64,000 nt of DNA from Aggregatilineales bacterium (GCA_029976025.1 JARKNX010000025.1:184-64183); one strand, 5' to 3'; shown: positions 6,301-43,474, counted from the first letter of the stretch. Notes: generated by a model not told the origin, from the letters alone. A program made the numbers and translations.

Positions 6301-6414
6301 GTTTTTCCATATCTTTCGGGGGGCGGGGCCAGCCCGCTCCCCTGCGGAATCCCTCACCGGCTTGCCGGATCACCCCTCCCCTGTGCAGGTAATAGAGACT
6401 GGCCGGAGACACTC

Positions 6415-10161: not shown

Positions 10162-10203
10162 CTGGCCGGAGGAGTTCCCGCGCCCCAAAGGAGCGACGCC
10201 GCT

Positions 10204-11217: not shown

Positions 11218-11384
11218 TCTGTCCGGCGCAGTACCCCGTGCCCGCGAATCGCCCTATAATCACGGTAGCGAATGCCGCCCGGGCGATTCCTCACGGTTCC
11301 CCGCCGGGCGGCGTATACTATCAGCGGCGCGGGCAAGTCCTCCCCGCCGGTGTGCTGACCTTCGCCCATAAGGAGACAATAAGC

Positions 11385-12401
11385 ATGGCCAAGAAGAAGG
11401 TAGTGCGAGCCGGGATTATCGGCGTCGGCGGGATGGCGCGTCACTACATCCGCCATATCCTCGCCGATCACAATGACGATACACAACTGGCGGCGTTTTG
11501 CGAGCCGTCTGCAGAGATGGTGGAGCGCGCCGCTGAGCTGTTCCAGGAAGCCGGCGTTGAGGTCCCGCCGAACGAGCCTGATCTCAGCCGCTTTCTGGCC
11601 CGATACGCCGGCCAACTGGATGTCGTCTTCATCCTCACGCCCCACGCTTACCACCACGATCAGGCCAAAGCGTGTCTGGAGGCCGGGCTGGATGTCCTGC
11701 TGGAGAAGCCGATGGTCATGACGGCGGAGGAGGCGCGCAGCCTGATTCAGACCCGCGATCGCACCGGCAAGCATCTGGTCGTGGCCTTCCAGGGCAGCCT
11801 GTCACCGCACATCCGAAAGGCGGTAGATATGATTCGCACTGGCGAAATCGGCGAGCTGATCAGCATCAGCGCGACAATCTGGCAGAACTGGGGTCCGGCC
11901 ACAGCCGGATCGTGGCGGCAGCAAATCGCGCTTTCCGGCGGCGGGTTCATGTTCGACACCGGCGCACACATGCTCAATACCGTCGCCGATCTGGCCGGAC
12001 AGAACTTCGCCGGGGTGGCTGCCTGGCTGAATAACCGGAGCGCTCCGGTGGATATCGTCGGCGTGATCATGGGCCGGCTGGAATCGGGGGCGCTGGTGAC
12101 CATGCACGGCTGCGGAGAAACAGTCCAGACGTGCACATCTGACATTCGCGTGTTTGGCTCGGACGCGATTCTGCGCACGGGGGCCTGGGGCGGGTCGCTG
12201 GATATCCAGCGCGACGGCGAGGAAGACTTCAGCCCCGTCCCCGTTGATGCCGGCAGAGGGACCTGGGAGCAGTTCCTGCTCGTCCATCAGGGCAAAATCG
12301 CCAACCCCAGCCCGCCGGAAGTGGGCCTGCGCATGGCGAAGCTGTGGGACGCGATCCGGGAGTCGGCGGCGCAGGGCGGCGTCCCGGTGAAGATAAGTTG
12401 A
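11385..12401 (+). CDS. Gfo/Idh/MocA-family NAD(P) oxidoreductase (ThuB-like)
   Basis: ORF 11214-12401. Start moved to ATG 11385 after AAGGAGA. N-terminus [24 protein letters not shown] (Rossmann fold) and EKPM motif LLEKPMVMT. Confidence 0.85.
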
Positions 12402-12432
12402 GCGGCGGTTACCCGCGAGGAGGAATTCACGC

Positions 12433-13158
12433 ATGACTATTCGTGTGACGGTCTGGAATGAGTATCGACACGAGCATCAGAACGAAAAGGTGCGGGCTAT
12501 CTACCCGGAGGGCATTCACACGACAATCAGCAGCTTTTTGCGCGCCGCCGGGATTGAGGCACGCACAGCCACGCTCGATGAGCCGGAGCACGGCCTGACC
12601 GACACCGTGCTGGCGAATACCGATGTGCTGATCTGGTGGGGGCACATGGCTCATGACGACGTCCGGGATGAGATCGTGGACAAAGTGCAGGAGCGCGTAC
12701 TGGATGGTATGGGGCTGATCGTGCTCCATTCCGGCCATCACTCCAAGATTTTCCGGCGGCTGATGGGGACAAGCGGCAATCTGAAGTGGCGCGAAGCCAA
12801 CGAGCGCGAGCGGGTGTGGGTCATTGAGCCGGGACACCCGATTGCGGAGGGGCTTGGCGAGCACTTCGTCATCCCCCATGAGGAAATGTACGGCGAGCGC
12901 TTCGATATTCCGACGCCGGACGCGCTGGTACTGGTGAGCTGGTTCGAGGGTGGCGATGTCTTCCGCAGCGGCTGCTGCTTCCAGCGGGGGCGGGGGCGCG
13001 TGTTTTACTTCCGCCCGGGCCATGAGACCTGCCCCACCTATCACCAGCCGGAAGTGCAGCGCGTGATCACCAACGCGGTCCGCTGGGCCGCGCCGCATAC
13101 CATCGCGTCGGCGCCGGTGGTCAACGTCACGGAACCGCTGGAGAAGATCGGCGGCTGA
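12433..13158 (+). CDS. thuA: ThuA-domain (trehalose-utilisation-like) protein
   Basis: 241 aa. Motifs [29 protein letters not shown] and [24 protein letters not shown]. Starts 31 nt after the oxidoreductase gene. Confidence 0.85.
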
Positions 13159-13183
13159 TCGGAGGCGTAAAGGCTACCCATAC

Positions 13184-13223
13184 GCGGCGTCTTCTGTCAC
13201 AATAGGAGGCGCCGCTTTTATTT
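13184..13223 (+). terminator. Rho-independent terminator after thuA-like gene
   Basis: GCGGCGTC (13184-13191) pairs with GGCGCCGC (13208-13215), followed by TTTTATTT. Confidence 0.65.
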
Positions 13224-13298
13224 GTCGATGAAGGCGGCAGGCATCTTCCTCTTTGTGCCCGTCCCGAGCGTATACGCAGACGTAAAGGTGGCCGTACC

Positions 13299-24343: not shown

Positions 24344-25663
24344 ATGTTCAAAAAGCAATCTGTTGTCCTGACCCTTAGCCTGGTGGCGGTGATTGCCCTC
24401 GGGATGTTCGCCGCCCCCCTTGCTGCGCAGGGGAATACCACGCTGGTTGTGTGGGATAACCTGGTCCGCCCCGAAGAAAGCGCCATCATGGACGCGCTCA
24501 TCGCCCGCTTCGAAGAAGCGCACCCCGGCGTCACGGTAGCGCGCACGGCAAAGAGCACGGACGACCTCAAGGCCACCACCGCCCTGGCGCTGAGCAGCCC
24601 CGACGGCCCGGATGTCGCCATGGTCAACCAGGGCCAGTCCGATATGGGGGCGCTGGTAGCGGCCGGCCTGCTGGAGCCGCTGGATGACTACGCCGAACAG
24701 TTCGGGTGGTTTGAGCACTTCCCGGCCGGCCTGGCCAGCCTTCAGCGCTGGACGCCCGACGGGATGCAGATGGGCGAGGGCGACTTCTACGGAATCCCCA
24801 TTCAGGCCGAGCTGGTTGGCGTATACTACCGCACCGACCTCTTCGAACAGTACGGCCTGAGCATCCCCACTACGCTGGCCGAATTTGAGGCGGCAATGGC
24901 TACGCTGGCCGAGGCCGGTGAGACTCCGCTGGTGTTCGGCAATCTGGACGCCTGGCCGGGCATTCACCTGTACAGCGAAATCCAGAATGCCGAGCTGGCG
25001 TCCCGCGAGTGGTACGACCAGTTCATGTTCACCACCGGCGAAGTCGATTTTGACATCCCGGAAAACATCGCCGCAGCGGCCAGACTCCAGGAATGGATCG
25101 CCAACGGCTGGCTGCTGAAAGGCTTCGAAGGTATCGGTTACGATGACGCCTGGCAGCTCTTCTCCGCCGGGACCGGCGCCATGCTGCTGACCGGGAGCTG
25201 GCTGAGCGGTGAGCTGCTGCCCGGCCCGCACGGCGCGGATATCGGCTTCTTCGTGCTGCCGGCGCTGGAAGAAGACGGCTTCAAGCTGACAGTCGGCGGG
25301 ACGGGGTACGACTTCTCCATTCGCGCCGGGTCGCCGAATGTCGATCTTGCCGCGGAATACATCAACTACCTGTACTCTGAAGAGACCGCTCAGGCGCTGC
25401 TGGATGCCGGGTTCCTGCCGGTGTATCCGGTTGATACCTCTACGCTCGAGGACGGCCTGGTGAAGGATATCGTCCTGGGCTGGAATCACCTGAATAGCAC
25501 CGACAGCGTCGGGTACTACATGGACTGGGTCACCCCCACCATGTACGACACCATTACGGCATCGTTACAGGAGCTGATGGCGGGGCGGGTCACGCCGGAG
25601 GAATTCGTCGATGTCGTGAATGCCGATTATGTCGCGTTCCTGCTGGAAAAAGGCGTCCGTTAG
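24344..25663 (+). CDS. ABC transporter substrate-binding protein (family 1, CUT1)
   Basis: 439 aa. Leader MFKKQSVVLTLSLVAVIALGMFAAPLAAQG. AAAAGGAGA RBS. Confidence 0.9.
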   Translation: MFKKQSVVLTLSLVAVIALGMFAAPLAAQGNTTLVVWDNLVRPEESAIMDALIARFEEAHPGVTVARTAKSTDDLKATTALALSSPDGPDVAMVNQGQSDMGALVAAGLLEPLDDYAEQFGWFEHFPAGLASLQRWTPDGMQMGEGDFYGIPIQAELVGVYYRTDLFEQYGLSIPTTLAEFEAAMATLAEAGETPLVFGNLDAWPGIHLYSEIQNAELASREWYDQFMFTTGEVDFDIPENIAAAARLQEWIANGWLLKGFEGIGYDDAWQLFSAGTGAMLLTGSWLSGELLPGPHGADIGFFVLPALEEDGFKLTVGGTGYDFSIRAGSPNVDLAAEYINYLYSEETAQALLDAGFLPVYPVDTSTLEDGLVKDIVLGWNHLNSTDSVGYYMDWVTPTMYDTITASLQELMAGRVTPEEFVDVVNADYVAFLLEKGVR

Positions 25664-25681
25664 CGTCCGCTGCTGATACCC

Positions 25682-25720
25682 GACCGGCAGATTCGCACTG
25701 GCGACGCGGATTTGCCGGTC
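25682..25720 (+). promoter_or_regulatory. Intercistronic stem-loop after the SBP gene (weaker)
   Basis: GACCGGCA (25682-25689) pairs with TGCCGGTC (25713-25720). The loop is 23 nt and contains a small inner stem. Confidence 0.4.
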
Positions 25721-25739
25721 ATCTCTCCAGAAGGGCACT

Positions 25740-26657
25740 ATGATCGATTCATCGCGGGAGATGCAGCGGGGGAACAGGCTCAGGGCGCTCATACCCTACC
25801 TGTTCGTGCTGCCCGCCTTCCTTATTTTCGCCCTCTTTGTCCTGCTCCCGATTCTTGACACGGTCCGCCTGAGCTTCTTCGATTGGACCGGCTTCAGCGC
25901 TCCCAATTTTGCCGGGCTGGCTAACTATATTGAGCTGTGGACGGACAGACTTTTCATAACCGGCCTGGGCAATAATCTGCGCTTCATCCTCTTTTACACT
26001 GTCTTCCCGATCGGGCTGGCGCTGGTGCTGACGGCGGTGATGACCCGGCGCCGGATACGGGGCATGAGCCTGTTTCGGGCTGGCTACTTCATCCCTTATG
26101 TGATGCCGATGGTGGTGGTAGGCGTCGTGTGGCGCTGGATCTATAACCCGGCTTTTGGCCCCCTCAATCAGGCCCTGGGGGCCATCGGCCTGGATGCGCT
26201 GGCCCGGCCCTGGCTGGGGGACTTCGACGCCGCGCTCCCCGCCGTCGGTCTGATCGCCACCTGGGTGCAGTACGGCTTCTGCATGGTCCTGTTCATCGCC
26301 GGCGTCCAGAAGATCGACGAATCGTTGTACGACGCGGCTCAGGTGGACGGAGCCAGCGCAATGCAGCAGCTCCGGCATATCACCATCCCCGGCATCCGCA
26401 CTGAGATTTCGGTCGCCCTGGTGACCACCTTCATCGCCGCCCTGCGCATCTTCGATCTGGTATTCGTCACCACGCGCGGCGGTCCCGGCGATCAGACTAT
26501 GGTCACCTCCCTCTGGCTGTACCGCAACGCCTTCCAGATCAACCGCGTCGGGTATGCCGCCACGATTGCCGTCGCCCAGTCGGTGCTTATCCTGGCGATC
26601 TCGGCTGTTCTGCTGCGGTTTACGCGCACCAGCGATCAGGAGGAGGTGGCTCAATGA
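25740..26657 (+). CDS. ABC sugar permease (MalF type)
   Basis: 305 aa. EAA loop YDAAQVDGASAMQQLRHITIPGI. Confidence 0.9.
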   Translation: MIDSSREMQRGNRLRALIPYLFVLPAFLIFALFVLLPILDTVRLSFFDWTGFSAPNFAGLANYIELWTDRLFITGLGNNLRFILFYTVFPIGLALVLTAVMTRRRIRGMSLFRAGYFIPYVMPMVVVGVVWRWIYNPAFGPLNQALGAIGLDALARPWLGDFDAALPAVGLIATWVQYGFCMVLFIAGVQKIDESLYDAAQVDGASAMQQLRHITIPGIRTEISVALVTTFIAALRIFDLVFVTTRGGPGDQTMVTSLWLYRNAFQINRVGYAATIAVAQSVLILAISAVLLRFTRTSDQEEVAQ

Positions 26658-27544
26658 CATCAGGCGCGGCAGATAGGCCCCTCACGTTGGAAAGCGCCGC
26701 AACGGCTTTCATAGCCTGGCTCAGACGATTATTGCGACGCATACCAATTTATGCTTTCCTGATTTTATTCCTGCTCATCGTGGCTCTGCCTTTCATTTCC
26801 ATCTCCCTCGCCGCCTTCAAAACATCGGCGGAGCTGACCAGAGGAGCCTTCACCCTCCCGGCGGAATGGCGCTGGTCCAACTTCAGCGACGCCTGGACAC
26901 AGGCCCACTTCGACTGGTACTTCCGCAACAGCGCCATTGTGGCCGTCCCGGTCGTCGCCGTCGGCACACTCCTGTCTATCTTCTCCGGCTACGCCTTCGG
27001 GCTGATGCGCTTCCCGCTCAGCCGCCTCCTGTTCGCCCTGTTCCTGCTGGGCATTATGGTCCCCCAGGAAGCCTATATCATCCCGCTGTATTACCTTCTG
27101 CGCGGGATCGGGCTGGTGGATACCTACTGGGCGATGATCCTGCCACAGATTGGGATGAGCGTCTGCTTTGGCAGCTTCTGGATGCGCGGCTTCTTCAGCA
27201 GCTTTCCGGCGGATACGCTCGACGCGGCGCGGGTGGATGGCTGCTCGATCTGGACGGCGCTCTGGCGCGTCCTGCTCCCCAACGCAGGCGCGGCGATCTC
27301 CACTCTGGTCGTCCTGCTGTTCATCTGGACCTGGAATGATTTCCTGATCGCCCTGGTGGTGGTCTCCTCAGATACGCTCCGCACGCTGCCGCTGGGGCTG
27401 GCCTTCTTCCAGGGGCGCTACGCATCCAATGTGCCGCTCATGGCCGCCGGGGCGATTATCGTCTTGCTGCCGACTCTGATCATCTATGTGCTGTTCCAAC
27501 GCCAGTTTATTCAGGGGGTCACTTCCGGCACGCTGCACGGATGA
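26654..27544 (+). CDS. ABC sugar permease (MalG type)
   Basis: 296 aa. ATGA start/stop overlap with the upstream permease. EAA loop LDAARVDGCSIWTALWRVLLP. Confidence 0.9.
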   Translation: MTSGAADRPLTLESAATAFIAWLRRLLRRIPIYAFLILFLLIVALPFISISLAAFKTSAELTRGAFTLPAEWRWSNFSDAWTQAHFDWYFRNSAIVAVPVVAVGTLLSIFSGYAFGLMRFPLSRLLFALFLLGIMVPQEAYIIPLYYLLRGIGLVDTYWAMILPQIGMSVCFGSFWMRGFFSSFPADTLDAARVDGCSIWTALWRVLLPNAGAAISTLVVLLFIWTWNDFLIALVVVSSDTLRTLPLGLAFFQGRYASNVPLMAAGAIIVLLPTLIIYVLFQRQFIQGVTSGTLHG

Positions 27545-27568
27545 CCCCACCCTGCAAAGGAGTTGACG

Positions 27569-28948
27569 ATGAAGCTCACCCTGATCGGCGGCGGCGGTGT
27601 CCGCGCCCCTCTTTTTGTCACTTCCGTGCTGCGGCGCGCGGAACGTATCCATCTTGACGAGCTGTGTCTGATGGATATCGATGAAGCGAAGCTGGCGATC
27701 ATCGGCGAGATCTGCCGGGCTGCGGCGCGCGCCGCCGGCAGCGCGGTCGCCATCACGACTACAACGGACCCCCGCGCGGCTATTCAGGACGCGCGCTACA
27801 TCGTGACCTCGATTCGGGCCGGCGGCGATCGGGGCCGCGTCCTGGACGAGCGCATCGCCCTGCGGCATGGCGTCCTGGGGCAGGAGACCACCGGTCCCGG
27901 CGGCTTCGCTATGGCCCTGCGCAGCATCCCGGCCCTGCTGGGCTACGCCGATCTGATCGCGCAGATCAGCCCCGGCGCGTGGATGTTCAACTTCACCAAT
28001 CCGGCCGGCCTGGTCACCCAGGCGCTCCACGACGCGGGCTTCTCCCACACCGTCGGCATCTGCGACGGGGCTAACCAGGCCCAGCACGCCGTCGCTCGCT
28101 GGCTGGGCGTCAACGCCAGAGACGTGCAGACGGAGGTGTATGGCCTGAACCATCTGTCCTGGGCGCGCCGGGCCTGGGTGGACGGGAAGGATGTGCTGCC
28201 CGACCTGCTGGCCGATCCAGCTTTCCTCAGCGCGAGCGACCTGCGCGTCTTCGAGCCGGACCTGGTGCGGCTGATGGGGGTGTGGCTCAACGAATATCTC
28301 TTCTACTACTACTATGCCGAACAGGCGGTCGCCGCTATCACCGGGGATGGCCGCACGCGCGGCGAGGAGATCGTTGACCTGAACGAGGGCCTGTTCCGGA
28401 CTCTGCGGGCGATCGATGTCCGGGCCGACCCGGCGGAGGCGCTGCGCAAGTATTACGCCTATAACAACCGCCGCGGCGCGACCTACATGCACTACGCCCG
28501 ACCCGACGCCCCCGATATGGCCGAGGCCGACCACACCAGCTATGAAGCGCCGCCCTCCGCCGACGAAGGAGAAGGGTACGCCGGAGTCGCCCTCGACATT
28601 ATCGAGGCCTTCGAGGCGCAGGAGCCGCTTTCCATTGCTCTCAACGTCCCCAACGAGGGGGCGATCGCCTGTATGCGGCCCGGCGATGTGGTCGAGGTGA
28701 GCTGCCGGGTTGATCGCGACGGCATCCACGCGCAGCCGATCGGAGATATCCCGGAGTCTCAGGCGCTGTTGATGCAGAACGTCAAGCACTACGAACGGCT
28801 GACGGTCGAAGCTGTGCGCACCCGTTCCAAAGATGTGGCCGTGCAGGCGTTGATGGCGCACCCGCTGGTGATGTCCTATTCACGGGCCAGAGCGCTGGTG
28901 AACGAATACCTCGAGGCTCATGCACCCTTTATAGGAGAATGGCATTAG
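27569..28948 (+). CDS. GH4-family NAD+/Mn2+-dependent glycosidase
   Basis: ORF from 27563. ATG 27569 follows AAAGGAG. N-terminal Rossmann MKLTLIGGGGVRAPLF. The GH4 signature-like segment PGAWMFNFTNPAGLVTQALHDAGFSHTVGICDGAN includes the conserved Cys. Confidence 0.85.
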   Translation: MKLTLIGGGGVRAPLFVTSVLRRAERIHLDELCLMDIDEAKLAIIGEICRAAARAAGSAVAITTTTDPRAAIQDARYIVTSIRAGGDRGRVLDERIALRHGVLGQETTGPGGFAMALRSIPALLGYADLIAQISPGAWMFNFTNPAGLVTQALHDAGFSHTVGICDGANQAQHAVARWLGVNARDVQTEVYGLNHLSWARRAWVDGKDVLPDLLADPAFLSASDLRVFEPDLVRLMGVWLNEYLFYYYYAEQAVAAITGDGRTRGEEIVDLNEGLFRTLRAIDVRADPAEALRKYYAYNNRRGATYMHYARPDAPDMAEADHTSYEAPPSADEGEGYAGVALDIIEAFEAQEPLSIALNVPNEGAIACMRPGDVVEVSCRVDRDGIHAQPIGDIPESQALLMQNVKHYERLTVEAVRTRSKDVAVQALMAHPLVMSYSRARALVNEYLEAHAPFIGEWH

Positions 28949-28955
28949 CGCCGCT

Positions 28956-29894
28956 ATGGAAGCCACCGCGAATAACCGCCCCTACGATGTCCTGGCCACG
29001 GGGCCTTACTTTGTTGATATGATTTTCAACGGCCTGCCGGAATTCCCCCAACTGGGGAAGGATATCTTCAGCAGCACCTTCGATCTGGTCCCCGGCGGGA
29101 TGTTCTACACCGTGCTGGCCCTGCACCGGCTGGGGGTCAGAACCGGCTGGACGTGCAACCTGGGTACGGACCTGTTCAGCCGGGCCATCCTGGAGGCGGC
29201 GGAAGCGGAAGGGATCGACAACCGCCTGTTTCATCACCACGAGCGCCCGGTGCGCCGGCTGGCGGCGTCGTTCTCTTTCAAGCATGACCGCGGCTTCGTC
29301 AGCTATCTCGATCAGGACGTGGAAGAGCTGATCTCGCTGGCGGAGCTGGAACGGGTTCGCCCACGCTGCCTGATGCTGGCCGGTCTGGACTACGTTTTCC
29401 AGGTGCCACAGACGAGTCGCCTCCCCAACCGGGCCGAGTTTGTCGTCTACCAGGACTGTCAGCATACCGACCTGACGCTGGAGTCATCCGAGCTGACCGC
29501 GGCACTGCGCCATGTGGATATCTTCGCCCCCAACGAGGTCGAAGCTATGCAGCTCACCGGGGCCGATACAGTTGAAGAAGCGCTGGAGCGCCTGGCGGCG
29601 GTCGTGCCGCTGGTGGTGGTCAAGTGTGGGGCGAAAGGCGCCCTGGCCCGGCGGGCGGATGCGGTCTACCGCGCTCCGGCCATTGATGTGAATGTGCAGG
29701 ATACAACGGGGGCCGGGGACTGCTTCAACGCAGGTTTTGTGTTCGGATATTTGCGGGGAGAGCCGCTGGAGAACTGCCTGCGGCTGGGCAACATCGTCGG
29801 CGGACTGTCCACAACCGCGCCGGGGTCGAGCGGCGTACCTGACCGCGCCCGGACGCTGGAGATGCTGGAGCACTACCCGGCGCACTGCCGCTGA
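28956..29894 (+). CDS. PfkB-family carbohydrate kinase
   Basis: 312 aa. PfkB signature DTTGAGDCFNAGFVFGYL. Starts 7 nt after the GH4 stop. Confidence 0.88.
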   Translation: MEATANNRPYDVLATGPYFVDMIFNGLPEFPQLGKDIFSSTFDLVPGGMFYTVLALHRLGVRTGWTCNLGTDLFSRAILEAAEAEGIDNRLFHHHERPVRRLAASFSFKHDRGFVSYLDQDVEELISLAELERVRPRCLMLAGLDYVFQVPQTSRLPNRAEFVVYQDCQHTDLTLESSELTAALRHVDIFAPNEVEAMQLTGADTVEEALERLAAVVPLVVVKCGAKGALARRADAVYRAPAIDVNVQDTTGAGDCFNAGFVFGYLRGEPLENCLRLGNIVGGLSTTAPGSSGVPDRARTLEMLEHYPAHCR

Positions 29895-29949
29895 TCCGCC
29901 CCCGCGTCGCTGGCCGGCAGATGCAGGCGGGCGAATCCTCCGCAGCCGA

Positions 29950-29978
29950 TTGTCAATCTGCTAGCAATCGGGTAGAAT
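29950..29978 (+). promoter_or_regulatory. Internal sigma70-like promoter upstream of the GRE activase
   Basis: TTGTCA (29950-29955), a 17-nt spacer, then TAGAAT (29973-29978). Overlapped by the inverted repeat CCGATTG (29946-29952) / CAATCGG (29965-29971). Confidence 0.55.
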
Positions 29979-30022
29979 TAGTCGCCATCAGGACTGCACC
30001 GCCAGGCAGGGATATTCAGACA

Positions 30023-30928
30023 GTGACCGACGGCCTCCTTTTCGATATTCAGCGATTCGCGCTGCATGACGGCCCCGGCATCCGCACCACTGTGTTCTTC
30101 AAAGGGTGCGGTCTGCGCTGCTGGTGGTGCCACAATCCGGAGAGTCAGCATCCTAAGCAGGAAGTGATGCTCCGCCCGGAGCTGTGTATCCAGTGCGGGG
30201 CGTGCCTGGAAGCATGCCCGGAGGGTGCGATCATCCGCGACGGGGACCGGCTGGTCACCCTGCGCGATCGGTGTACCGGCTGCGGCGCATGTGCCGAAGC
30301 CTGCAACGCCGACGCGCGCCAGATCGTCGGGCGCGCTATGGCGGTGGCCGCGGTGATGGCAGAAGTCATGCGCGACTCCCTCTTTTATGAAGAGTCGGGG
30401 GGCGGCGTCACCTTCTCCGGCGGCGAGCCGCTCCTGCAAGGCGATTTCCTGCTGGCGCTGCTGCGCGCCTGTAAAGCGCAGGACCTGCACACCACGCTCG
30501 ATACATGCGGCCACGCGCCAACCGCCACGCTGGAAGCGGTGCGTCCCTACGTAGACCTGTTCCTGTACGATCTCAAGCTGATGGACGACGCCCGCCACCG
30601 GCAGGTCACCGGCGCGTCGAACAAACTCATCCTGGAACACCTGCATCTGCTGGCGCGGGGAGGACACCGCATCGTCCTGCGCATCCCGCTTATCCCCGGC
30701 ATCAACGACGACGAGGAGAACCTCCGCCAGATAGCTACCCTGGTCCGCACACTGCCGCAGATTGAGCGTGTGGACCTTTTGCCGTATCATCTGATTGGGG
30801 ATCACAAGTACGAACGTCTGAATCGCCCCAATCCAATGCCAGAAACTCTGCCGCCGACTCCGGCGCAGATGGAAAACGCCGTCCGGATCTTCCGGGATGC
30901 AGGGGTGCAGGTCAGCACAGGAGGATGA
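30023..30928 (+). CDS. Glycyl-radical-enzyme activating enzyme (radical SAM, with two ferredoxin-like clusters)
   Basis: The ORF is open from 29921, but that extension covers the internal promoter. GTG 30023 gives VTDGLLFDIQRFALHDGPGIRTTVFFKGCGLRCWWCHNPES, with CX3CX2C at nt 30107-30130. Also CIQCGACLEACPEGA and CTGCGACAEACNADA. The size and layout fit PFL2-clade activases. Confidence 0.9.
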   Translation: MTDGLLFDIQRFALHDGPGIRTTVFFKGCGLRCWWCHNPESQHPKQEVMLRPELCIQCGACLEACPEGAIIRDGDRLVTLRDRCTGCGACAEACNADARQIVGRAMAVAAVMAEVMRDSLFYEESGGGVTFSGGEPLLQGDFLLALLRACKAQDLHTTLDTCGHAPTATLEAVRPYVDLFLYDLKLMDDARHRQVTGASNKLILEHLHLLARGGHRIVLRIPLIPGINDDEENLRQIATLVRTLPQIERVDLLPYHLIGDHKYERLNRPNPMPETLPPTPAQMENAVRIFRDAGVQVSTGG

Positions 30929-30931
30929 GCA

Positions 30932-33301
30932 ATGAAGATGAGTGAGCGTGTCGCCCGGTTGCGGCAGCAAAGCCTGGACGCAACCCCAACATTGTCGCCA
31001 GAACGGGCGCTGCTGATGACCCGGTTCTACCAGCAGCAGACGGCCCGGCAGTCCACACCCGTCGAGCGGGCTAACGCTTTCGCTTACCTGATGGAGCACC
31101 GGACGGTCTGTATCAACGACGGCGAGCTGATCGTCGGCGAGAAAGGCCCCGCTCCCAAGGCCACGCCTACTTACCCGGAACTGTGCTGTCACACCCGGCA
31201 GGACCTGGAGATTCTCAACTCGCGGGAGAAAATCCCCTTCGCTGTCAGCCCGGAAACCTTCCGCCTCTATGAGGAGACGATCATCCCCTTCTGGGGCGGC
31301 AAAACTATGCGGGAGATGATCCTGGGCGAAATGCGCCCGGAATGGCTGGACGCCTACGAAGCCGGCATCTTCACCGAGTTCATGGAGCAGCGATCGCCCG
31401 GCCACACCGTGCTGGATGACAAAATCTACCGCCGCGGGATGCTGGACTTCATCGCCGAGATCGAGGCCCAGTTAGAAGCGCTCGATTATCTGGCCGACCC
31501 GAACGCCTACGCCCGGCAGGAGCAACTCAAGGCTATGCGGATCGCCGCCCGGGCCTTGATCCGCTTCGCCGAACGGCACGCGGAGAAGGCGCGCGAGTTG
31601 ATGAAGCAGGAGGCTGATCCGGATCGCCGGGAAGAGCTGGCGCGCATCGCCGATGTCTGCTCCTATGTCCCGGCGAACGCCCCGCGCGACTTCTGGGACG
31701 CGCTGCAATACTACTGGTTCGTGCATGTGGGCGTCACCTCGGAGCTGAATCCCTGGGACGCTTTCAACCCCGGCCACCTGGATCACCACCTCTATCCCTT
31801 CTACCAGCAGGGGCTGGCGGACGGCACGCTGACCCGCGAAGAGGCGGAAGAGCTTTTGCAGTGCCTGTGGATCAAGTTCAACAATCAGCCGGCCCCGCCC
31901 AAAGTCGGCGTTACGGCGCAGGAAAGCGGCACCTACACGGATTTCGCCCAGATCAATCTCGGCGGGGTGACTGTCGAAGGCGCGGACGCCGTCAATGACG
32001 TGACTTACCTCCTGCTGGACGTGATTGAGACGATGCGCCTGCTCCAGCCCAGTTCTTCCATCCAGGTCAGCAAGAAGAACCCCGACCGCTTCATCAAACG
32101 GGCCGCTCGCATTATTCGCACTGGCTTCGGCCAGCCGTCCGTCTTCAACACCGATGTTGTCGTGCAGGAGATGATCCGGCAGGGCAAGTCGCTGATGGAT
32201 GCCCGGCAGGGCGGCACCAGCGGCTGCGTCGAGACCGGCGCTTTCGGCAAGGAAAACTACAACCTGACCGGCTACTTCAACCTGCCCAAGGTGCTGGAGG
32301 TCACGCTGCATAACGGCCTCGACCCGCGCACAGGGAAGCGGCTCGGCCCCGAGACCGGCGATCCGCGCTCATTTCGCACCTTTGATGACTTCTTCGCCGC
32401 CTTCGAGAAGCAGCTCCACCACTTCCTGGACATCAAGATACGCGGCAACAACGTCATCGAGCGGCTGTATGCCCGCTACCTGCCGGCGCCGTTCCTCTCC
32501 CTGCTGATCGACGACTGCATCGCCACCGGCAAGGACTACCATGACGGCGGCGCCCGCTACAACACCTCGTATATTCAGGGGGTGGGGCTGGGGACAATCA
32601 CCGACGCCCTGACCGCGCTGAAGATTCATGTATTCGAGCAGAAGACCCTGATTATGGAGGAGATGCTGGCCGTCCTGGCCGCCGACTTCGACGGCTATGA
32701 GCGCGAGCGCCTGATGCTGCTCAACCGGACGCCCAAGTACGGCAACGATGACGACCGCGCCGACTCGGTGATGGTGCGCGTGTTCGAGGCTTATTTCGCC
32801 GCTATCGACGGGCGACCGAACACGAAAGGCGGCGTCTACCACATCGATCTGCTGCCCACTACATGCCACGTCTACTTCGGCTCAGTGACCGGGGCTACCC
32901 CGGATGGCCGCCGGGCGTGGACACCGCTCTCCGAAGGCATCTCGCCAGTGCAGGGGGCCGATCGCTGCGGGCCAACCGCGGTCATTCGCTCCGTCGCCAA
33001 GATGGACCATGTCCGCACCGGCGGCACGCTGCTCAACCAGAAGTTCACGCCGGCGGTGCTGGCGGGCGACGAGGGTCTCGACCAGCTCGTCCGTCTCATA
33101 CGGACCTACTTCCGGCTGGACGGCCACCACATCCAGTTCAATGTCGTGGATGCGGATACGCTGCGCGCCGCCCAGAAAAATCCGGAACAGTACCGCGACC
33201 TGATCGTGCGCGTCGCCGGTTACAGCGACTACTTCTGCGACCTCAGCCAGGCGCTCCAGGATGAGATCATCGCTCGCACCGAATACCTCCAGTTTGGCTA
33301 A
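30932..33301 (+). CDS. Glycyl radical enzyme, PFL2/diol-dehydratase-like clade (substrate unknown)
   Basis: 789 aa. Glycyl motif RVAGYS (Gly763, nt 33218-33220). Thiyl loop SGCVETG (Cys432 at nt 32225-32227, Glu434). C-terminal GATPDGR...GPTA...LNQKF...HIQFNVVD...NPEQYRDLIVRVAGYSDYF. GGAGGA RBS. Starts 3 nt after the activase stop. Confidence 0.95.
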   Translation: MKMSERVARLRQQSLDATPTLSPERALLMTRFYQQQTARQSTPVERANAFAYLMEHRTVCINDGELIVGEKGPAPKATPTYPELCCHTRQDLEILNSREKIPFAVSPETFRLYEETIIPFWGGKTMREMILGEMRPEWLDAYEAGIFTEFMEQRSPGHTVLDDKIYRRGMLDFIAEIEAQLEALDYLADPNAYARQEQLKAMRIAARALIRFAERHAEKARELMKQEADPDRREELARIADVCSYVPANAPRDFWDALQYYWFVHVGVTSELNPWDAFNPGHLDHHLYPFYQQGLADGTLTREEAEELLQCLWIKFNNQPAPPKVGVTAQESGTYTDFAQINLGGVTVEGADAVNDVTYLLLDVIETMRLLQPSSSIQVSKKNPDRFIKRAARIIRTGFGQPSVFNTDVVVQEMIRQGKSLMDARQGGTSGCVETGAFGKENYNLTGYFNLPKVLEVTLHNGLDPRTGKRLGPETGDPRSFRTFDDFFAAFEKQLHHFLDIKIRGNNVIERLYARYLPAPFLSLLIDDCIATGKDYHDGGARYNTSYIQGVGLGTITDALTALKIHVFEQKTLIMEEMLAVLAADFDGYERERLMLLNRTPKYGNDDDRADSVMVRVFEAYFAAIDGRPNTKGGVYHIDLLPTTCHVYFGSVTGATPDGRRAWTPLSEGISPVQGADRCGPTAVIRSVAKMDHVRTGGTLLNQKFTPAVLAGDEGLDQLVRLIRTYFRLDGHHIQFNVVDADTLRAAQKNPEQYRDLIVRVAGYSDYFCDLSQALQDEIIARTEYLQFG

Positions 33302-33622: not shown

Positions 33623-35506
33623 ATGAAGTACACACGGAGTTGGATTATCGCATTGACAGCTATTACCCTGCTGACTTCTCTCAGCGGGCTGGCTTCCGCA
33701 CAATCAAGCGACAATGTCCTGGCCGGGACAGGCTGGACTCTCACCGCCATCAATGGCCAGCCTCCCCTGGCCGGGACGATGGTCACTCTCAACTTCGATG
33801 CCGAAGGCCGGGTCAACGGGTCGGACGGCTGCAACAGCTACGCGACGAGCTACACCGTGGACGACACCAGCCTGACTTTTGGAGCGCAGATAATTTCGAC
33901 CATGATGGCCTGCCAGGACGCGGTTATGACCCAGGCCGGGACCTACCAGGCCGTCCTGCTGCAGACAGCCTCATTCCATAAGATCGGCGGGCAGCTCTTT
34001 CTGCTGGACGCTGACGGCGCGACCCTGCTGGTGTTCGCCCTGCAGGAAACCGACCTGGTCGGCACGCAGTGGGAAGTTATCAGCTACAACAACGGCCAGC
34101 AGGCTGTCGTCTCCACCCTGAGCGGCACTACGCTGACCGCTAACTTCGGCGCGGACGGCACGCTCTCCGGCATCGCCGGCTGCAACAACTATTTCGCCAG
34201 TTTTGAGAGCGATGGCAAATCGACGATCACGATCGGGCCAGCGGCAACTACACGCATGCTTTGCTCCGAGCCGGGAGGCGTGATGGAGCAGGAGGCCGCA
34301 TATCTGGCGGCGCTGGCGACAGCCGCCACCTACCAGATCACCGGCGACCAGTTGCACATGCGTACCGCCGATGACGCCCTGGCCGTCACCTTTGTCCGCG
34401 CCGCGACACCGGCTGACAATGACCAGCCGGCGGGCATCTTGCTCGATCCGCATGGCCTGGCCGAGACCTGGGAGGCTGTATCCGTTCCGGAGACCCCTTA
34501 CGACGCCAGCATGCCGCCTGGACCGACCGGGCTGCCGGCGCATACTCAGGTCCTGTTCGACATTTTCGATGCGGCTGCATGGCAGCCCGGCATGCCGATC
34601 ATGACGATCATCCCGGTGGACGCCTACCGCTCCATGTGGGATGAGAATAAGGATACCGCCGTCATTGTTGCCATCGGGCAGATTCACAACCTGATAGCGT
34701 CCATGCCATCCTCCGGCCCGATCAGCGGCGTGCCGGCCCTGCCCTACGAAATAACGGGGGGCGGCATCAACGACGCAGCGGCGCAGTTCAGCTTCGTCGC
34801 CGGGGCGGATACGAGCGCCAGCAAGGGCGGCTACCGGTTTGTTGGCCGCTGGACACAGGAACCGACCCCCATGACCAACCAGGGCCTGTTCTACGTCTAC
34901 CAGGGTTTCACCAATGACGGCAAATATCTGGTCTCGTTCTTCTATCCGGTGACCACCACCGCCCTGCCCGATTCTGTCGAACAGGTCTCAGCGGCGGACC
35001 TGGCCGCCGTGGAGGCCGATCCGGGGGCTTACCTCCAGGCGCAGGTTGCGATGCTGAACGCCCTGACGCCGGCGGACTGGACACCCAATCTGGACACGCT
35101 GGACGCGCTGGTCAGCTCGCTGCAGATCGAGGGCATGACCTCCTCCGGTTTGCTCAACCGGGCCTGGGCCTGGCTGGGCACCCGTCCCGGCGATAGCAAA
35201 ACCGTGACCCCGCTGGCCGATCCCCGCCTCTACGAGGTGACTTACAACTCCGACGGCACGCTGACCTTTGTGGCTGACTGCAACCGGGGCAACGGCACCT
35301 TCACGCTTCAGGGCGGCGTGACGGGCAGCCTGACCACTACGCTCGGCGCAACAACCCTGGCTATGTGCAACGATGGCGACCAGGGCCAGCAGTTCATGAA
35401 CGCTCTGGAGGCCGCGCAGAGCTTCCGCGTGCTGCCGGGCGGCAGCGTGCTTGAGCTTGTCCCGCCGGCAGGCGATGATATTCTCGTCTTCGTCAGCGGC
35501 GGCTAA
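33623..35506 (+). CDS. Secreted protein with three META (HslJ-like) domains
   Basis: 627 aa. Signal peptide MKYTRSWIIALTAITLLTSLSGLASAQ. META-like modules: WTLTAINGQP...GSDGCNSYATSY...TMMAC, WEVISYNNG...GIAGCNNYFASF...TRMLC, and C-terminal YEVTYNSDGTLTFVADCNRGNGTF...LAMC. AGGAG RBS. Confidence 0.8.
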   Translation: MKYTRSWIIALTAITLLTSLSGLASAQSSDNVLAGTGWTLTAINGQPPLAGTMVTLNFDAEGRVNGSDGCNSYATSYTVDDTSLTFGAQIISTMMACQDAVMTQAGTYQAVLLQTASFHKIGGQLFLLDADGATLLVFALQETDLVGTQWEVISYNNGQQAVVSTLSGTTLTANFGADGTLSGIAGCNNYFASFESDGKSTITIGPAATTRMLCSEPGGVMEQEAAYLAALATAATYQITGDQLHMRTADDALAVTFVRAATPADNDQPAGILLDPHGLAETWEAVSVPETPYDASMPPGPTGLPAHTQVLFDIFDAAAWQPGMPIMTIIPVDAYRSMWDENKDTAVIVAIGQIHNLIASMPSSGPISGVPALPYEITGGGINDAAAQFSFVAGADTSASKGGYRFVGRWTQEPTPMTNQGLFYVYQGFTNDGKYLVSFFYPVTTTALPDSVEQVSAADLAAVEADPGAYLQAQVAMLNALTPADWTPNLDTLDALVSSLQIEGMTSSGLLNRAWAWLGTRPGDSKTVTPLADPRLYEVTYNSDGTLTFVADCNRGNGTFTLQGGVTGSLTTTLGATTLAMCNDGDQGQQFMNALEAAQSFRVLPGGSVLELVPPAGDDILVFVSGG

Positions 35507-37198: not shown

Positions 37199-38875
37199 AT
37201 GGCAGATAAACAGCGCACGGCAATAATCTTCGCGTGCTGGGCTGCGCTGACCGTCGGAATGGCCGTGCTGGCCGCGCCGCCCGGCGCATCGCATGCGCAG
37301 CCATCCGCCGCCGTCTCCGGCACGGTCAGCGACGCAAACGGGCCGGTGGCCGGGGCGACGGTGCGCGTTCAGGGCACGCTCAACGCCACCCTGACCGATG
37401 AGGAGGGGCATTTCACACTCGCCGGACTGCCAGAGGGGATTGCTGTCACAATCAGCGCCTGGGCGGATAGCTACTACTGCGCCAAAGCGGAGGAGATCAT
37501 CCCGCCTGATGACGCCGTGACCCTCACACTGGTGCGCTACCAGACAGGCGACAACCCCGCCTATGAATGGGTTTCGCCAGTTGGCGATGACGGCTGCGCG
37601 AGCTGCAAGCCGGGCCTGACTCAAATATGGCTGGAGAATGATGCCCACGCCGGGTCCAGCGCCAACCCGCGCTTCCTGACCATGTACAACGGCACGGACA
37701 TACACGGCAATCGAAGCCCGCTGACGCTCTACGGGTACACCGCGGAAGACGGCCGCTTTCCACTGCCGCCCGATCTGTCGCAGCCCTATTACGGCCCGGG
37801 CTACCTGCTGGACTGGCCGCGGACGCGGGGCAACTGCGGCAACTGTCACACACCCGGCGCGGCGCTCGATGGCCCCTCCTACGGCACAGACCCCAATACT
37901 GTGAGCGGCGCTGATGAGTACGGCGTGCACTGCGACTTCTGCCACAAAGTGGCCGACGTTTATCTCGACCCGCGGACCGGCCTGCCTTATCCGGATCGGC
38001 CCGGCGTGCTCTCCATGGACGTCCGGCGCCCCTTCCCCGATGACCCGGACCGTTACCAGTTATTCTTCGGCACTTTCGATGACGACAACGTGCCGGAAGA
38101 GGACACGTACCTGCCGCTGATGTCGGAAAGCCAGTTCTGCGCGCCGTGCCATTACGGCGTATTCTTCAATACCGTCGTTTACAACTCCTTCGGCGAATGG
38201 CTGGGCAGCCCCTATGCCGACCCCGAAGCCGGCCAAACCTGCCAGGACTGCCACATGCCGGCCCCGTCGGTGGTCGATGGCGCGGTCATGACCAACATCG
38301 CCCCGGACGCGGGCGGCATCGAGCGCGACCCTATGACCATCCACGCCCATACCAACCCCGGCGCGGCCAGCGAAGCGCTGCTGCGCGACACGGCGGAGCT
38401 GTCCCTCGCCGCAGCCCGCCAGGGCGACCGGATCGAAGTGACGGTCGCCGTCACCAATACCGGAGCCGGACATCACATCCCGACCGATTCGCCGTTGCGG
38501 CAGATTTTCGCCATCGTCACGCTCACCGATGGCGCGGGTAACCTTCTGCCGCTGGAAGCCGGGCCGATCCTGCCGGACTGGGCGGGCGATCTGGCGGGGG
38601 CGCCGGGCGTGTACTTCGCCCGCATCCTGCAAGAGACCCGGACAGGCATCGCGCCGACCGGTTCCTACTGGAGCCCGACGCGCGTCCTGGAGGATACGCG
38701 GCTGCCGACGCTGGCCACCGCATCGTCGCGGTACACTTTCGCCGCAGCGGATGCCGGTCCGGTCACCGTGGAAGCGCGCCTGCTCTTCCGCCGGGCGTTC
38801 TACGAATTGATGCAGCAGAAAGGCTGGGATGTCCCCGATATCCTGATGGCGAGCGAGACGGTCACTGTGCCGTGA
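37199..38875 (+). CDS. Secreted multihaem c-type cytochrome with N-terminal CarboxypepD_reg-like domain
   Basis: 558 aa with a signal peptide. VSGTVSDANGPVAGATVRVQGTLNATLTDEEGHFTLAGL. Four CXXCH motifs: CGNCH at 37835-37849, CDFCH at 37931-37945, CAPCH at 38138-38152 and CQDCH at 38240-38254. One CXXCK (CASCK, 37595-37609). Confidence 0.8.
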   Translation: MADKQRTAIIFACWAALTVGMAVLAAPPGASHAQPSAAVSGTVSDANGPVAGATVRVQGTLNATLTDEEGHFTLAGLPEGIAVTISAWADSYYCAKAEEIIPPDDAVTLTLVRYQTGDNPAYEWVSPVGDDGCASCKPGLTQIWLENDAHAGSSANPRFLTMYNGTDIHGNRSPLTLYGYTAEDGRFPLPPDLSQPYYGPGYLLDWPRTRGNCGNCHTPGAALDGPSYGTDPNTVSGADEYGVHCDFCHKVADVYLDPRTGLPYPDRPGVLSMDVRRPFPDDPDRYQLFFGTFDDDNVPEEDTYLPLMSESQFCAPCHYGVFFNTVVYNSFGEWLGSPYADPEAGQTCQDCHMPAPSVVDGAVMTNIAPDAGGIERDPMTIHAHTNPGAASEALLRDTAELSLAAARQGDRIEVTVAVTNTGAGHHIPTDSPLRQIFAIVTLTDGAGNLLPLEAGPILPDWAGDLAGAPGVYFARILQETRTGIAPTGSYWSPTRVLEDTRLPTLATASSRYTFAAADAGPVTVEARLLFRRAFYELMQQKGWDVPDILMASETVTVP

Positions 38876-38985: not shown

Positions 38986-40062
38986 CTACCCGGCGTAGAA
39001 TCCGTATTCCTGCGCGGTCTCGTACAGCGCCAGGACATTCTCCACCGGCGTCTCGGCCAGGACGTAATCATGGCTGGGGCAGGCCACATAGCCGCCGCCC
39101 GGCATCATCAGATCGAGGATGCGGCGCGTCTCGGCCCGGGCCGCCTCCGGCGTGCCGTCGATGAGCAGCCGGGTATCGATACAGCCCATCAGCAGCAGAT
39201 CGCCCCCGAACCGCCGCTTGAGCGACGCCGGCTCCATATCGCGACAGCTCGGCTGGAGCGCCTGCAGGCCGTCCAGGCCGGCCTCGATCATGGCCGGGAT
39301 GAGCGGGGCGAAGCCGCCGCAGCAGTGCAGCAGCACGCGCAGGCCGTAGCTATGCCCCAGATCGATCAGGCGCTTGAGATGGGGCAGCACAAACCGGCGG
39401 AACTGCGCCTCGCCGATCAGCGGGCCATTAGTGGAGCCGAAGTCGTTGCCGATGAAGAAGATATCGATCAGGTCGGCGGCTTCGTCGAAGATACGCTGGC
39501 TGACGCCGGCGTAATAATCGACCAGATGCTCCAGCACGGCGTCCACCAGCGCCGGGACGTCGAACATCTTGAACATCAGGTTTTCCATGCCCAGCAGGTC
39601 GATGGCGTCATGCCAGAAGGGCGACCAGTCCCCGCCAAGGATGGCGTACTGCCCGCCATACTGTTCCGCCTCAGCCCGAATCTGGCTGACATCCATCCAG
39701 GCCGGGTCGGGCCAGGGGTAGGCTTCTACCTCGGCAACCGTCGTCGCGCCGATCAGCGGGTGCGACACCGGCTGCCCCCCTTCGTAGCCGTGTCGCAGGA
39801 TGCCGAACGGCGAACGAAAAGTTATGCCGGGGGGCAGGTTAGCGTACGGCGCGTATTCCTCCGGCCCGGCATAGACCGCCAGCACCCGCCGGAAGTCATC
39901 CCCCACCAGGCGCGACAGCGCCTCATCATCAGCCAGGCCTAACTGCCGCCGGGCGATCTCCCGGAAGGCCGGAGAAGCCCCCAGCCAGAGGGGGACGTGA
40001 TCCGGCTCCACATGGTTGAACGCCGCCAGCACCCGTTCTCGCGAGGTCATCCGCCTGTCCAC
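38986..40062 (-). CDS. Uroporphyrinogen-decarboxylase (URO-D/MtaA-like) family protein
   Basis: 358 aa. GTG start at 40062 preceded by GAAGGAGG. MTSRERVLAAFNHVEPDHVPLW and LHCCGGFAPLIPAMIEAGLDGLQ are typical of the URO-D fold family. The function in this context is unknown. Confidence 0.8.
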   Translation of the reverse strand: MDRRMTSRERVLAAFNHVEPDHVPLWLGASPAFREIARRQLGLADDEALSRLVGDDFRRVLAVYAGPEEYAPYANLPPGITFRSPFGILRHGYEGGQPVSHPLIGATTVAEVEAYPWPDPAWMDVSQIRAEAEQYGGQYAILGGDWSPFWHDAIDLLGMENLMFKMFDVPALVDAVLEHLVDYYAGVSQRIFDEAADLIDIFFIGNDFGSTNGPLIGEAQFRRFVLPHLKRLIDLGHSYGLRVLLHCCGGFAPLIPAMIEAGLDGLQALQPSCRDMEPASLKRRFGGDLLLMGCIDTRLLIDGTPEAARAETRRILDLMMPGGGYVACPSHDYVLAETPVENVLALYETAQEYGFYAG

Positions 40063-40724: not shown

Positions 40725-41945
40725 CTAGAACTCGCCCTGGGCCATCTTCTTCTGCATTTTGACCGGAGTGTTTTCCAGCAACCACGCCTCGGTGCGCGCC
40801 CTGATCTCCTCCGGTGTCTCCTGGTAGCCATACGTCTCCAGCAGCACCGGCGTCCACTTTTTGCCCCAGCGAATATGAAAATTCTCGTCGCTCCAGTCAT
40901 AGCTGACGGCGGCGGCGGAAATCTCGTCGTCGATCTGCTCCCAGTGCTCGCGGTTGGCCGCTTTCTCCGGCATGCCGTTCGGCTCGATGACAGTCGTCAG
41001 CAAAGCATACTGATCCACGGCGGGCAGGGTCATCATGACGTTGTAAATCTGGACGACCTGCGGCACGTCAGAAGGCTGGAGGCCGAGCTGCTCCACGCGG
41101 GTCTGACCAAGCTGGCTGTGGCGGATTTCGTCCCACTGATGGCGGGCCACATTGTGCTGGTACTCCCACGGCATCTCCGGCGTCATCCACAGGATGGAAG
41201 CCAGCGTCTCGGCGGCCGTCATCTCGTTGAGGTAGTGCTTGAAGCGCCACAGGCGGTACGCTTCCGGCTCACGCTCGCGGTCGGGCTGAATATCCTCATC
41301 CGGGTTGAAGATCGGCCAGCCGGGCATCCGCTGGCATTCCTTCCACGGCAGCAGCAGCGGGTGGCCTTCCGGACGGGCGGGTGCTTCCTCAGGCGGCGCT
41401 GTCCCGGTGACGCCGCCGTCCGCGGCCAGCAAGCCGGCGATATAGTCCCGCCACGCTTCCCAGCCCGGATAGCGCCCGGATACCTCCGGGAAGAATCCCT
41501 GCGCCCAGGCTACCTGCTTTTCCGTCAGGTCCAGCAGGCGCTCGCGGATGATCTTGACGGTGGGGTTATCGAAATCTTCCCATGTCCTTGTCGCGTGGGC
41601 GCGGTAGGCCTCCAGCAGGGCGGACTTGACGACCAGGTAGACGGTGGCGAGCACCTCGGCGGTATTCTGGGCGTAGTCAAGCTCCTGAATCAGCCGGCTC
41701 AGCCCCGGGCTGGCGTCGCGGTCAGGGTGGTAGGCGCGCAACTCGCGCAGGCGTCCGCGCAGAGCGTCAGAAGCATCGGCGCTCTCCCAGATGTGAAGCC
41801 CGATCAGGTTCTTGGCCTCCCATTCCGGTACGCCGGGCAGCCAGCCGGCCAGCGTGCGCATACAGGCGCGTTCGAGCACAGCATACCGCTTGAGGAGGGC
41901 GGTATTCTGTTCCAGTGTGAGGCGGGAGGCGGTCTTTCTGCTCAT
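40725..41945 (-). CDS. Ferritin-like diiron-carboxylate superfamily protein (function unknown)
   Basis: 406 aa with AGGAGA RBS. The C-terminal half carries E-x26-ExxH (MTAAE...WDEIRH) and E-x32-ExxH (IEP...DENFH) spacing, typical of diiron four-helix bundles. The overlapping plus-strand ORF 40689-41975 is Arg/Gly-rich and is rejected. Confidence 0.65.
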   Translation of the reverse strand: MSRKTASRLTLEQNTALLKRYAVLERACMRTLAGWLPGVPEWEAKNLIGLHIWESADASDALRGRLRELRAYHPDRDASPGLSRLIQELDYAQNTAEVLATVYLVVKSALLEAYRAHATRTWEDFDNPTVKIIRERLLDLTEKQVAWAQGFFPEVSGRYPGWEAWRDYIAGLLAADGGVTGTAPPEEAPARPEGHPLLLPWKECQRMPGWPIFNPDEDIQPDREREPEAYRLWRFKHYLNEMTAAETLASILWMTPEMPWEYQHNVARHQWDEIRHSQLGQTRVEQLGLQPSDVPQVVQIYNVMMTLPAVDQYALLTTVIEPNGMPEKAANREHWEQIDDEISAAAVSYDWSDENFHIRWGKKWTPVLLETYGYQETPEEIRARTEAWLLENTPVKMQKKMAQGEF

Positions 41946-42158: not shown

Positions 42159-42218
42159 GGGGTGGCGATCACAATAGCAGTCCTGGATCCGGTTTCTGCC
42201 TGACCAGTGGAGCGCCGT

Positions 42219-43373
42219 ATGCCTGACCTGATCGAGATCGCAGTATCAGTGGAAGAACTCGCCGCGCGGGAGGAGCGAGTCGCCAGAACCAAGCGCTTCG
42301 AAGAACCCGATCGCGTCCCCGTCATCCCGGCCATCGCCCACCGCTTCCTGGTTCCCCAGGTCGGGGTTCGCCTCCACGACTACTATGCCGACCCGGAAAC
42401 CATGCTGCGCACCCAGATCCTCGCCCAGAAGTGGCTGATGGAGAACATCCGCACCGACGCCCACAGCATCACCGGGGCCTGGGTCGGCGCGTGGACCGAC
42501 TTTCAGAATACCTTCGAGTCCGGCAGCCTGGGCTGCCGGGTTGTCTTCCCGGAAGACGACATCCCCTGGGTGAGCGAAATAGGATGGGTCAAAACGGATG
42601 AAGACCTGGCCCGGCTGGAGGCGATGGATTTCGTGAATGGCGAGATCAACGCCCGGCAGGTCGCCTACCGGCGAGCTATGATGCGCGTGGCCGAAAAATA
42701 CCCCGTGCGCTTCCTGGGCGGCGAAGTCTTTTACCCGGGCGCTAATCCCAATCTCACCCACACTTCCGACGGCGCCTTCGGCATCGCCGGCGATCTGATG
42801 GGCCAGACGGAGCTGTTCCTGGCCTGTTACGAGCGTCCGGACTTCGTGCGCGAGCTGCTGCGTATCATCACCGATAAGCTGATCGCCTACCTCGATTTCT
42901 GCTGGGAGGAGGAACAGCTCCCCCACCGGGATTTCGCCTGGACCGACGATCTGGCCGTCAATCTCTCCGCTGACATGTACCGCGATCTGGTCCTGGCGGA
43001 AGAAAAACGGCTCCGCTTTCATTTCGACGGCTGGCTATCCCTGCATATGTGCGGCAAGGCCGACCACCTGCTGGAAATCTTCCGCGACGACCTGCGCATT
43101 TGCGAGCTGCAGGGGTTTGGCTACCAGGTCGATCTGGATCACATCGCCGCCGTCATGGGCGGGAAGGTCGTCCTGATTGGGAATATTGATCCGATGCTGA
43201 TCTATAGAGGCACGCCGGAGCAGGTCCGCGAAGCCACGCGGATCGCCATCGAGAAGCTGGCCCCTTACCGGGGCTACATCGTCCAGGACGGCAGCAACAT
43301 CCCGCCGGGGACGCCGGTGGAAAATATCAATGCGCTGACAGAGGCCGCAGAGCTTTACGGCCGCTACCGGTGA
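42219..43373 (+). CDS. Uroporphyrinogen-decarboxylase (URO-D/MtaA-like) family protein, second copy
   Basis: ORF from 42207. ATG 42219 lies 6 nt after GGAG. Motifs RFEEPDRVPVIPAI, LSLHMCGKADHLLEIF and GYIVQDGSNIPPGTPVENI. Confidence 0.8.
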   Translation: MPDLIEIAVSVEELAAREERVARTKRFEEPDRVPVIPAIAHRFLVPQVGVRLHDYYADPETMLRTQILAQKWLMENIRTDAHSITGAWVGAWTDFQNTFESGSLGCRVVFPEDDIPWVSEIGWVKTDEDLARLEAMDFVNGEINARQVAYRRAMMRVAEKYPVRFLGGEVFYPGANPNLTHTSDGAFGIAGDLMGQTELFLACYERPDFVRELLRIITDKLIAYLDFCWEEEQLPHRDFAWTDDLAVNLSADMYRDLVLAEEKRLRFHFDGWLSLHMCGKADHLLEIFRDDLRICELQGFGYQVDLDHIAAVMGGKVVLIGNIDPMLIYRGTPEQVREATRIAIEKLAPYRGYIVQDGSNIPPGTPVENINALTEAAELYGRYR

Positions 43374-43474
43374 TGGGCACTGCGCCCTGACCCGCTGCAA
43401 GACATCACCTGGCCCCGCCTGCCTTGAGGCTCGCCACGTCGCTGGCCTCACCTGAACAGGGAGGAAAAACCGTT

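Follow-up and report, generated by a model that had tools for sequence, protein, structure and literature searches.

The analysed window is a stretch of 64,000 nucleotides from the genome of an Aggregatilineales bacterium. It contains a pair of adjacent genes predicted to encode a glycyl radical enzyme (GRE) and its radical SAM activase, both on the plus strand. The genes and candidate signals of this part of the window are as follows:

24344-27544 (+), a sugar-binding protein and two permeases, upstream of the activase
27563-28948 (+), a GH4 glycosidase resembling alpha-galactosidases, with a score of 218 bits that falls short of the cut-off
28956-29894 (+), a PfkB kinase, directly upstream of the activase
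29950..29978 (+), a sigma-70-like promoter candidate, TTGTCA-17-TAGAAT, matching 10/12 consensus positions, from a consensus scan only
30023..30928 (+), a putative HypD-activating enzyme of 301 aa that starts with GTG, a radical SAM GRE activase assigned with NF043069 and TIGR02494
30932..33301 (+), a predicted trans-4-hydroxy-L-proline dehydratase HypD (GRE), assigned with NF043068, the match to 6VXC and the pocket residues
33320..33360 (+), a terminator-like GC-rich hairpin followed by the U-rich UUGCUUUUC, with a minimum free energy (MFE) of -27.4 kcal/mol
33623-35506 (+), a protein of 627 aa containing three META domains, immediately 3' of HypD
37199-38875 (+), a CarboxypepD_reg-domain protein of 558 aa, also with weak matches of the multihaem cytochrome c7 type

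The GRE open reading frame is intact and codes for a protein of 789 aa, a full-length GRE homologue (E = 0), which excludes a chance pattern. An identical but unnamed protein is present in NCBI and Logan, and the GC and GC3 contents of the gene pair match those of adjacent genes. The motifs described in the initial annotation were all recovered from the translated frame: the glycyl radical motif RVAGYS at residue 760, with Gly763 as the radical site; the CXE loop GCVE at 431, with the thiyl residue Cys432 and the CXE glutamate Glu434; SPGHTVLD at 155, containing His158; NPWDAFNPGH at 273; and, after the Cys loop, the segment GAFGKENYNLTGYFNL at 436. Its placement of the protein among the eliminase-type GREs with a CXE loop, and not with pyruvate formate-lyase (PFL), also stands. 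The loop GCVE holds no Cys-Cys pair, and the PFL model TIGR01255 scores 127 bits against a cut-off of 994, so a PFL identity was rejected.

Among the curated NCBIfam equivalogs for GREs, only that for trans-4-hydroxy-L-proline dehydratase (NF043068) is exceeded by the query (1310.1 bits, cut-off 1100), with a match that spans residues 5-784 of the protein and positions 2-781 of the 784 in the profile. All other GRE equivalogs remain far under their own cut-offs, namely HpsG (568 bits vs 1000), CutC (TIGR04394, 512 vs 1050), HpfG (509 vs 1000) and indoleacetate decarboxylase (419 vs 1100), as well as PFL. The top match among all PDB sequences is HypD of Clostridioides difficile (6VXC/6VXE, 1079 bits), followed by glycerol dehydratase (569 bits), propanediol dehydratase (9RCO, 514), HpzG (8IOF, 492), HpyG (8ID1, 464) and HplG (7VUA, 431). 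The query and C. difficile HypD have the same length and align without gaps over 781 residues with 56.5% identity, the query numbering being that of C. difficile HypD minus 2. Their Gly loop (RVAGYS) and Cys loop (GCVE) are identical, whereas the ∼44% of residues that differ lie outside the pocket. Judged by these profiles, the protein belongs to a known family that is recognised by routine annotation models, and the gene pair is a standard HypD with its activase. Some close relatives of the query (78% identity) already carry the name trans-4-hydroxy-L-proline dehydratase at NCBI or JGI.

The substrate pocket was compared at 15 test positions, the catalytic and substrate-contact residues defined by crystallography and mutagenesis of C. 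difficile HypD (PMC7077986). In that enzyme, the CXE loop consists of Cys434, Val435 and Glu436, and the radical site is Gly765; His160, Asp278 and Asp339 are acid/base or network residues that are essential by mutagenesis, the two aspartates not being conserved in other eliminases (PMC7077986). [quoted passage not shown] In the gapless alignment all 15 residues are identical in the query (F150, R154, H158, W275, D276, K324, S332, D337, F338, C432, V433, E434, Y448, T643 and G763). The query thus keeps both the essential acid/base set (His158, Asp276 and Asp337) and the Hyp-binding set (Ser332, Tyr448, Thr643, Phe338, Phe150, Trp275, Arg154 and Lys324). The same 15 residues are invariant in the C. 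difficile enzyme and in 77 HypD relatives from one-genome-per-species contigs of Chloroflexota, Gemmatimonadota, Acidobacteriota, Aminicenantes, Bacillota and archaeal metagenome-assembled genomes (MAGs), while only 109 of 789 alignment columns are invariant overall. The initial annotation had regarded the pocket as apparently non-canonical. Neither this view nor an undefined specificity is supported, because the contact residues proved to be those of a known GRE, an outcome that the initial annotation had itself named as counter-evidence, and the cut-off of NF043068 is exceeded; by residue identity, the apparently odd pocket is the canonical HypD pocket.

Glycerol dehydratase of C. butyricum (1R8W/1R9D) and propanediol dehydratase (5I2A, 9RCO) are ∼35% identical to the query. 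They share with it the GRE eliminase fold, the CXE loop and a conserved His (GD His164 corresponds to His158), and, like HypD, they remove water in a radical 1,2-elimination (PMC13450708). The two GD segments given in the initial annotation were correct, as both appear in the HMMER alignment to 1R8W: the GD segment tEGWHDSAFFNL lies opposite ENYNLTGYFNL of the query, so that GD Asp447 corresponds to Leu445, and ESNG-HSISPA (with His281 and Ser282) lies opposite ELNPWDAFNPG. When the glycerol ligands His164, Ser282 and Asp447 were tested together with Cys433 and Glu435, only the His, the Cys and the Glu were found to be retained, Ser282 being replaced by Ala277 and Asp447 by Leu445. Both GD and PD differ from the query at 10 of the 15 pocket positions, among them D276 (His), S332 (Phe), D337 (Met/Val), Y448 (Phe) and F150 (Gly); GD Phe333 thereby corresponds to the HypD-specific Ser332. 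Since the pocket differs from that of GD and the glycerol ligands Ser282 and Asp447 are lost, the substrate is not glycerol, as had been proposed from the first reading, and a GD identity was rejected. CutC, which differs from the query at H158, D276, K324, S332 and D337, was rejected on these differences and on its profile score. The HypD-specific positions D276, S332, D337, K324 and Y448 are those that set the query apart from GD, PD, CutC and HpyG, and at the two aspartates (276 and 337) all four of these enzymes have other residues.

These comparisons leave a negligible probability for the reading of the query as a B12-independent glycerol or 1,2-propanediol dehydratase, a choline TMA-lyase or a PFL. 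What it has in its favour is common to the GREs concerned (a shared fold with a TM score of ∼0.85 to all, the CXE loop and the GH histidine), and it is contradicted by the lost glycerol ligands, the dissimilar pocket positions, the CutC and PFL scores and the missing Cys-Cys pair. A HypD-like enzyme with a shifted specificity, acting on another hydroxyproline stereoisomer or on an N-methylated form as HpyG, HpzG and HplG do, is less remote but still unlikely. HpyG and HpzG are N-methyl-cis-4-hydroxyproline dehydratases and HplG is a trans-4-hydroxy-D-proline C-N lyase; all three act, like HypD, on hydroxyproline-type rings, with H abstraction by the loop Cys and the CXE glutamate on the hydroxyl, and the existence of such GREs (PMC13450708) speaks for this reading. 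So do the identity of only 56% to a characterised HypD and the scope of the comparison, which covers first-shell residues. The evidence on the other side is that these three enzymes score far lower than HypD (431-492 bits, ∼30-32% identity) and that HpyG differs at 5 of 11 aligned pocket positions (D276 is Ala, K324 is Gln, D337 is Met, Y448 is Asp and W275 is absent), whereas the first shell of the query equals that of HypD throughout. An HpyG or HpzG identity was rejected on these scores and on the HpyG pocket mismatches. Moreover, a probable HpyG orthologue, described below, looks quite different. A specificity shift behind an identical first shell is without support.

The AlphaFold2 model of the query has a mean pLDDT of 70 and a pTM of 0.79, its quality being limited because the underlying alignment is shallow (29 sequences). 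Foldseek with this model returned 6VXC as the top match (E 2e-66, TM 0.88). In the active-site segments 149-161, 273-280, 333-339, 430-447, 639-698 and 761-765, the pLDDT falls below 50, and the pocket geometry is therefore drawn from sequence homology alone. The predicted model supports the global fold only; neither pocket geometry nor docking can be based on it.

We consider it highly probable (roughly 93%) that the locus is a two-gene unit in which the activase gene 30023-30928 is followed by a gene, 30932-33301, for a HypD that acts as in C. difficile. The mechanism described here is transferred by homology from the C. difficile enzyme. Under anoxic conditions, the activase would reductively cleave S-adenosylmethionine and take a hydrogen atom from Gly763, and the resulting radical would be handed on to Cys432. 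Ser332, Tyr448 and Thr643 would bind the carboxylate of Hyp, near Arg154 and Lys324; the ring would stack on Phe338, and the amine and hydroxyl would contact Asp276, a water-bridged Asp337, His158 and Glu434. The Cys432 thiyl radical would then remove a hydrogen from C5, water would be lost from C4 with Asp276 as the acid/base residue, backed by His158, Glu434 and the water-bridged Asp337, and the return of hydrogen to C4 would yield (S)-delta-1-pyrroline-5-carboxylate (P5C). Enzymes from other parts of the genome may then channel P5C into proline or glutamate metabolism. The probable host, an anaerobic and saccharolytic member of the Anaerolineae (Chloroflexota), could use Hyp from peptides as a source of carbon or nitrogen or as an electron sink.

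The activase gene ends 4 bp before the HypD frame. Its best NCBIfam model is NF043069 (T4HPD_activ_SAM), with 380 bits under a cut-off of 425, and it passes the GRE activase model TIGR02494 (362 bits vs 174). The protein contains the CX3CX2C motif of the SAM cluster at residues 29-36 and CX2CX2CX3C ferredoxin motifs at 55-65 and 84-94. A longer, 335-aa frame starting from the ATG at 29921 was also considered; its profile match begins only at residue 39 and public gene calls give 301 aa, so this start is probably wrong and the GTG at 30023 is preferred. In 61-63 of about 80 related loci, the activase lies directly upstream of HypD. The promoter candidate is located in the gap of 128 bp that separates the PfkB stop (29894) from the start of the activase; the consensus scan of the region found 7 sites where 3.2 were expected, which makes it weak evidence for this particular site. 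The hairpin begins ∼20 nt past the HypD stop and is more stable than its shuffles (z = -3.1); as it was not listed by the consensus scan, we infer its terminator role. Both candidates, which are matches to consensus or energy only, are consistent with a self-contained bicistronic unit. Long antisense frames, such as 29978-31405 (-), overlap the activase and HypD genes and have equivalents in ∼67 related loci, where they cluster as 'conserved'. This apparent conservation results from the high GC content and the conserved gene on the sense strand, and the frames are an artefact, not evidence of a gene.

The wider neighbourhood is rich in glycan-degradation genes, for example at 4798-7920 (+), 11214-15704 (+) and 43424-46249 (+). 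Among them are a protein with an alpha-L-arabinofuranosidase C-terminal domain, a GH43 protein with an AbfB domain, a GFO/IDH/MocA oxidoreductase beside ThuA, an MGH1-like glycoside hydrolase and a GH38 mannosidase, and the window contains at least five sets of sugar ABC transporter genes. Further upstream of HypD, the opposite strand encodes a protein of the RidA family as well as an ABC transporter of the peptide or nickel type; downstream, the META-domain protein is accompanied by a metallophosphoesterase. Two URO-D paralogues flank two genes, one for a DUF455 protein and one whose product has a nucleoside 2-deoxyribosyltransferase-like domain (38986-40062 (-), 40725-41945 (-) and 42207-43373 (+)). 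Outside haem biosynthesis, URO-D paralogues are often methyltransferases.

Comparison with the related loci by tblastn and clustering of open reading frames assigned none of these flanking genes to a conserved context: none of the window genes that flank the activase-HypD pair recurs in the 80 loci, and the META-domain and CarboxypepD_reg genes do not recur beside HypD in its relatives. A larger conserved operon, whether with the sugar ABC, GH4 and PfkB genes or with the divergently oriented genes for RidA and the peptide ABC transporter, was rejected because the activase is the only conserved neighbour of HypD in the 80 loci. The close spacing of the sugar ABC, GH4, PfkB, activase and HypD genes on one strand, together with the arabinofuranosidase-type enzymes encoded at 4798-7920, could be taken to mean that HypD belongs to a catabolic locus with the upstream genes and uses the Hyp of O-glycosylated plant or algal hydroxyproline-rich glycoproteins. 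If true, such a coupling of HypD to glycan use would be an undescribed anaerobic route for the breakdown of extensin or arabinogalactan proteins. However, its sole support is adjacency in one genome, and the sugar genes are absent near HypD in the related loci, while the gap with the promoter-like site separates PfkB from the activase. Genes for glycan utilisation are so frequent throughout the window that adjacency to some of them is expected by chance. We find no support for a functional link between HypD and the adjacent sugar genes, and consider it at least as unlikely as the shift in specificity discussed above.

Returning to the two-gene HypD unit, a scan of the open reading frames with Pfam and NCBIfam found none of proC (P5C reductase), P5C dehydrogenase, proline racemase or epimerase in the window. 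An adjacent proC is typical of Clostridiales and does not define HypD, and its absence, as in the window, is typical for HypD. The setting is unlike that of C. difficile, a gut Clostridium: the query probably comes from an environmental Anaerolineae bacterium, and the window has neither an adjacent proC nor any indication that proline is reduced in a Stickland reaction. P5C therefore probably has another fate than in C. difficile.

The nearest relatives of the query (74-82% identity) are overwhelmingly MAGs of Anaerolineae/Chloroflexota, and those at 65-82% identity come from Chloroflexota, Gemmatimonadota, Acidobacteriota, Aminicenantes and archaeal MAGs. A HypD with its activase is an already known kind of system, and the query is one more case of the widespread occurrence of HypD in uncultured environmental anaerobes. 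The features that make its GRE pocket look unusual mark a characterised enzyme, HypD, and the value of the result lies mainly in correct annotation. A literature search on HypD in Chloroflexi returned no matching paper. According to a published view, anaerobic use of Hyp extends well beyond gut Stickland fermenters (PMC6219649), and both the wide distribution of HypD and the absence of proC beside it support this view.

Three archaeal MAGs (L053, L065 and L077, of Bathyarchaeia and Thermoplasmata) encode HypD homologues of 66-68% identity with an adjacent activase, in agreement with the reported presence of HypD in archaea. In 8 of the 77 related loci, an M24 Xaa-Pro aminopeptidase/prolidase gene lies directly 3' of HypD (median +71 bp; for example 12460-13851 (+) in L079), and in 9 loci a LivF-like amino-acid ABC ATPase gene lies upstream; neither gene is found in the query window. 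These neighbours hint that some lineages obtain their Hyp from peptides.

The locus of Desulfosporosinus sp. FKB (L043, NZ_NADJ01000026.1) contains a second GRE gene at 5266-7659 (+), ∼2.3 kb upstream of its HypD gene (10001-12361). Its product matches HpyG (8ID1) with 1244 bits and is 37% identical to the query HypD. It was rejected as a divergent HypD, since it differs at 12 of the 15 pocket sites and is a separate, HpyG-type paralogue. NCBIfam seems to be without a model for the HpyG family, and by sequence comparison the second GRE of this locus is a probable HpyG orthologue clustered with HypD.
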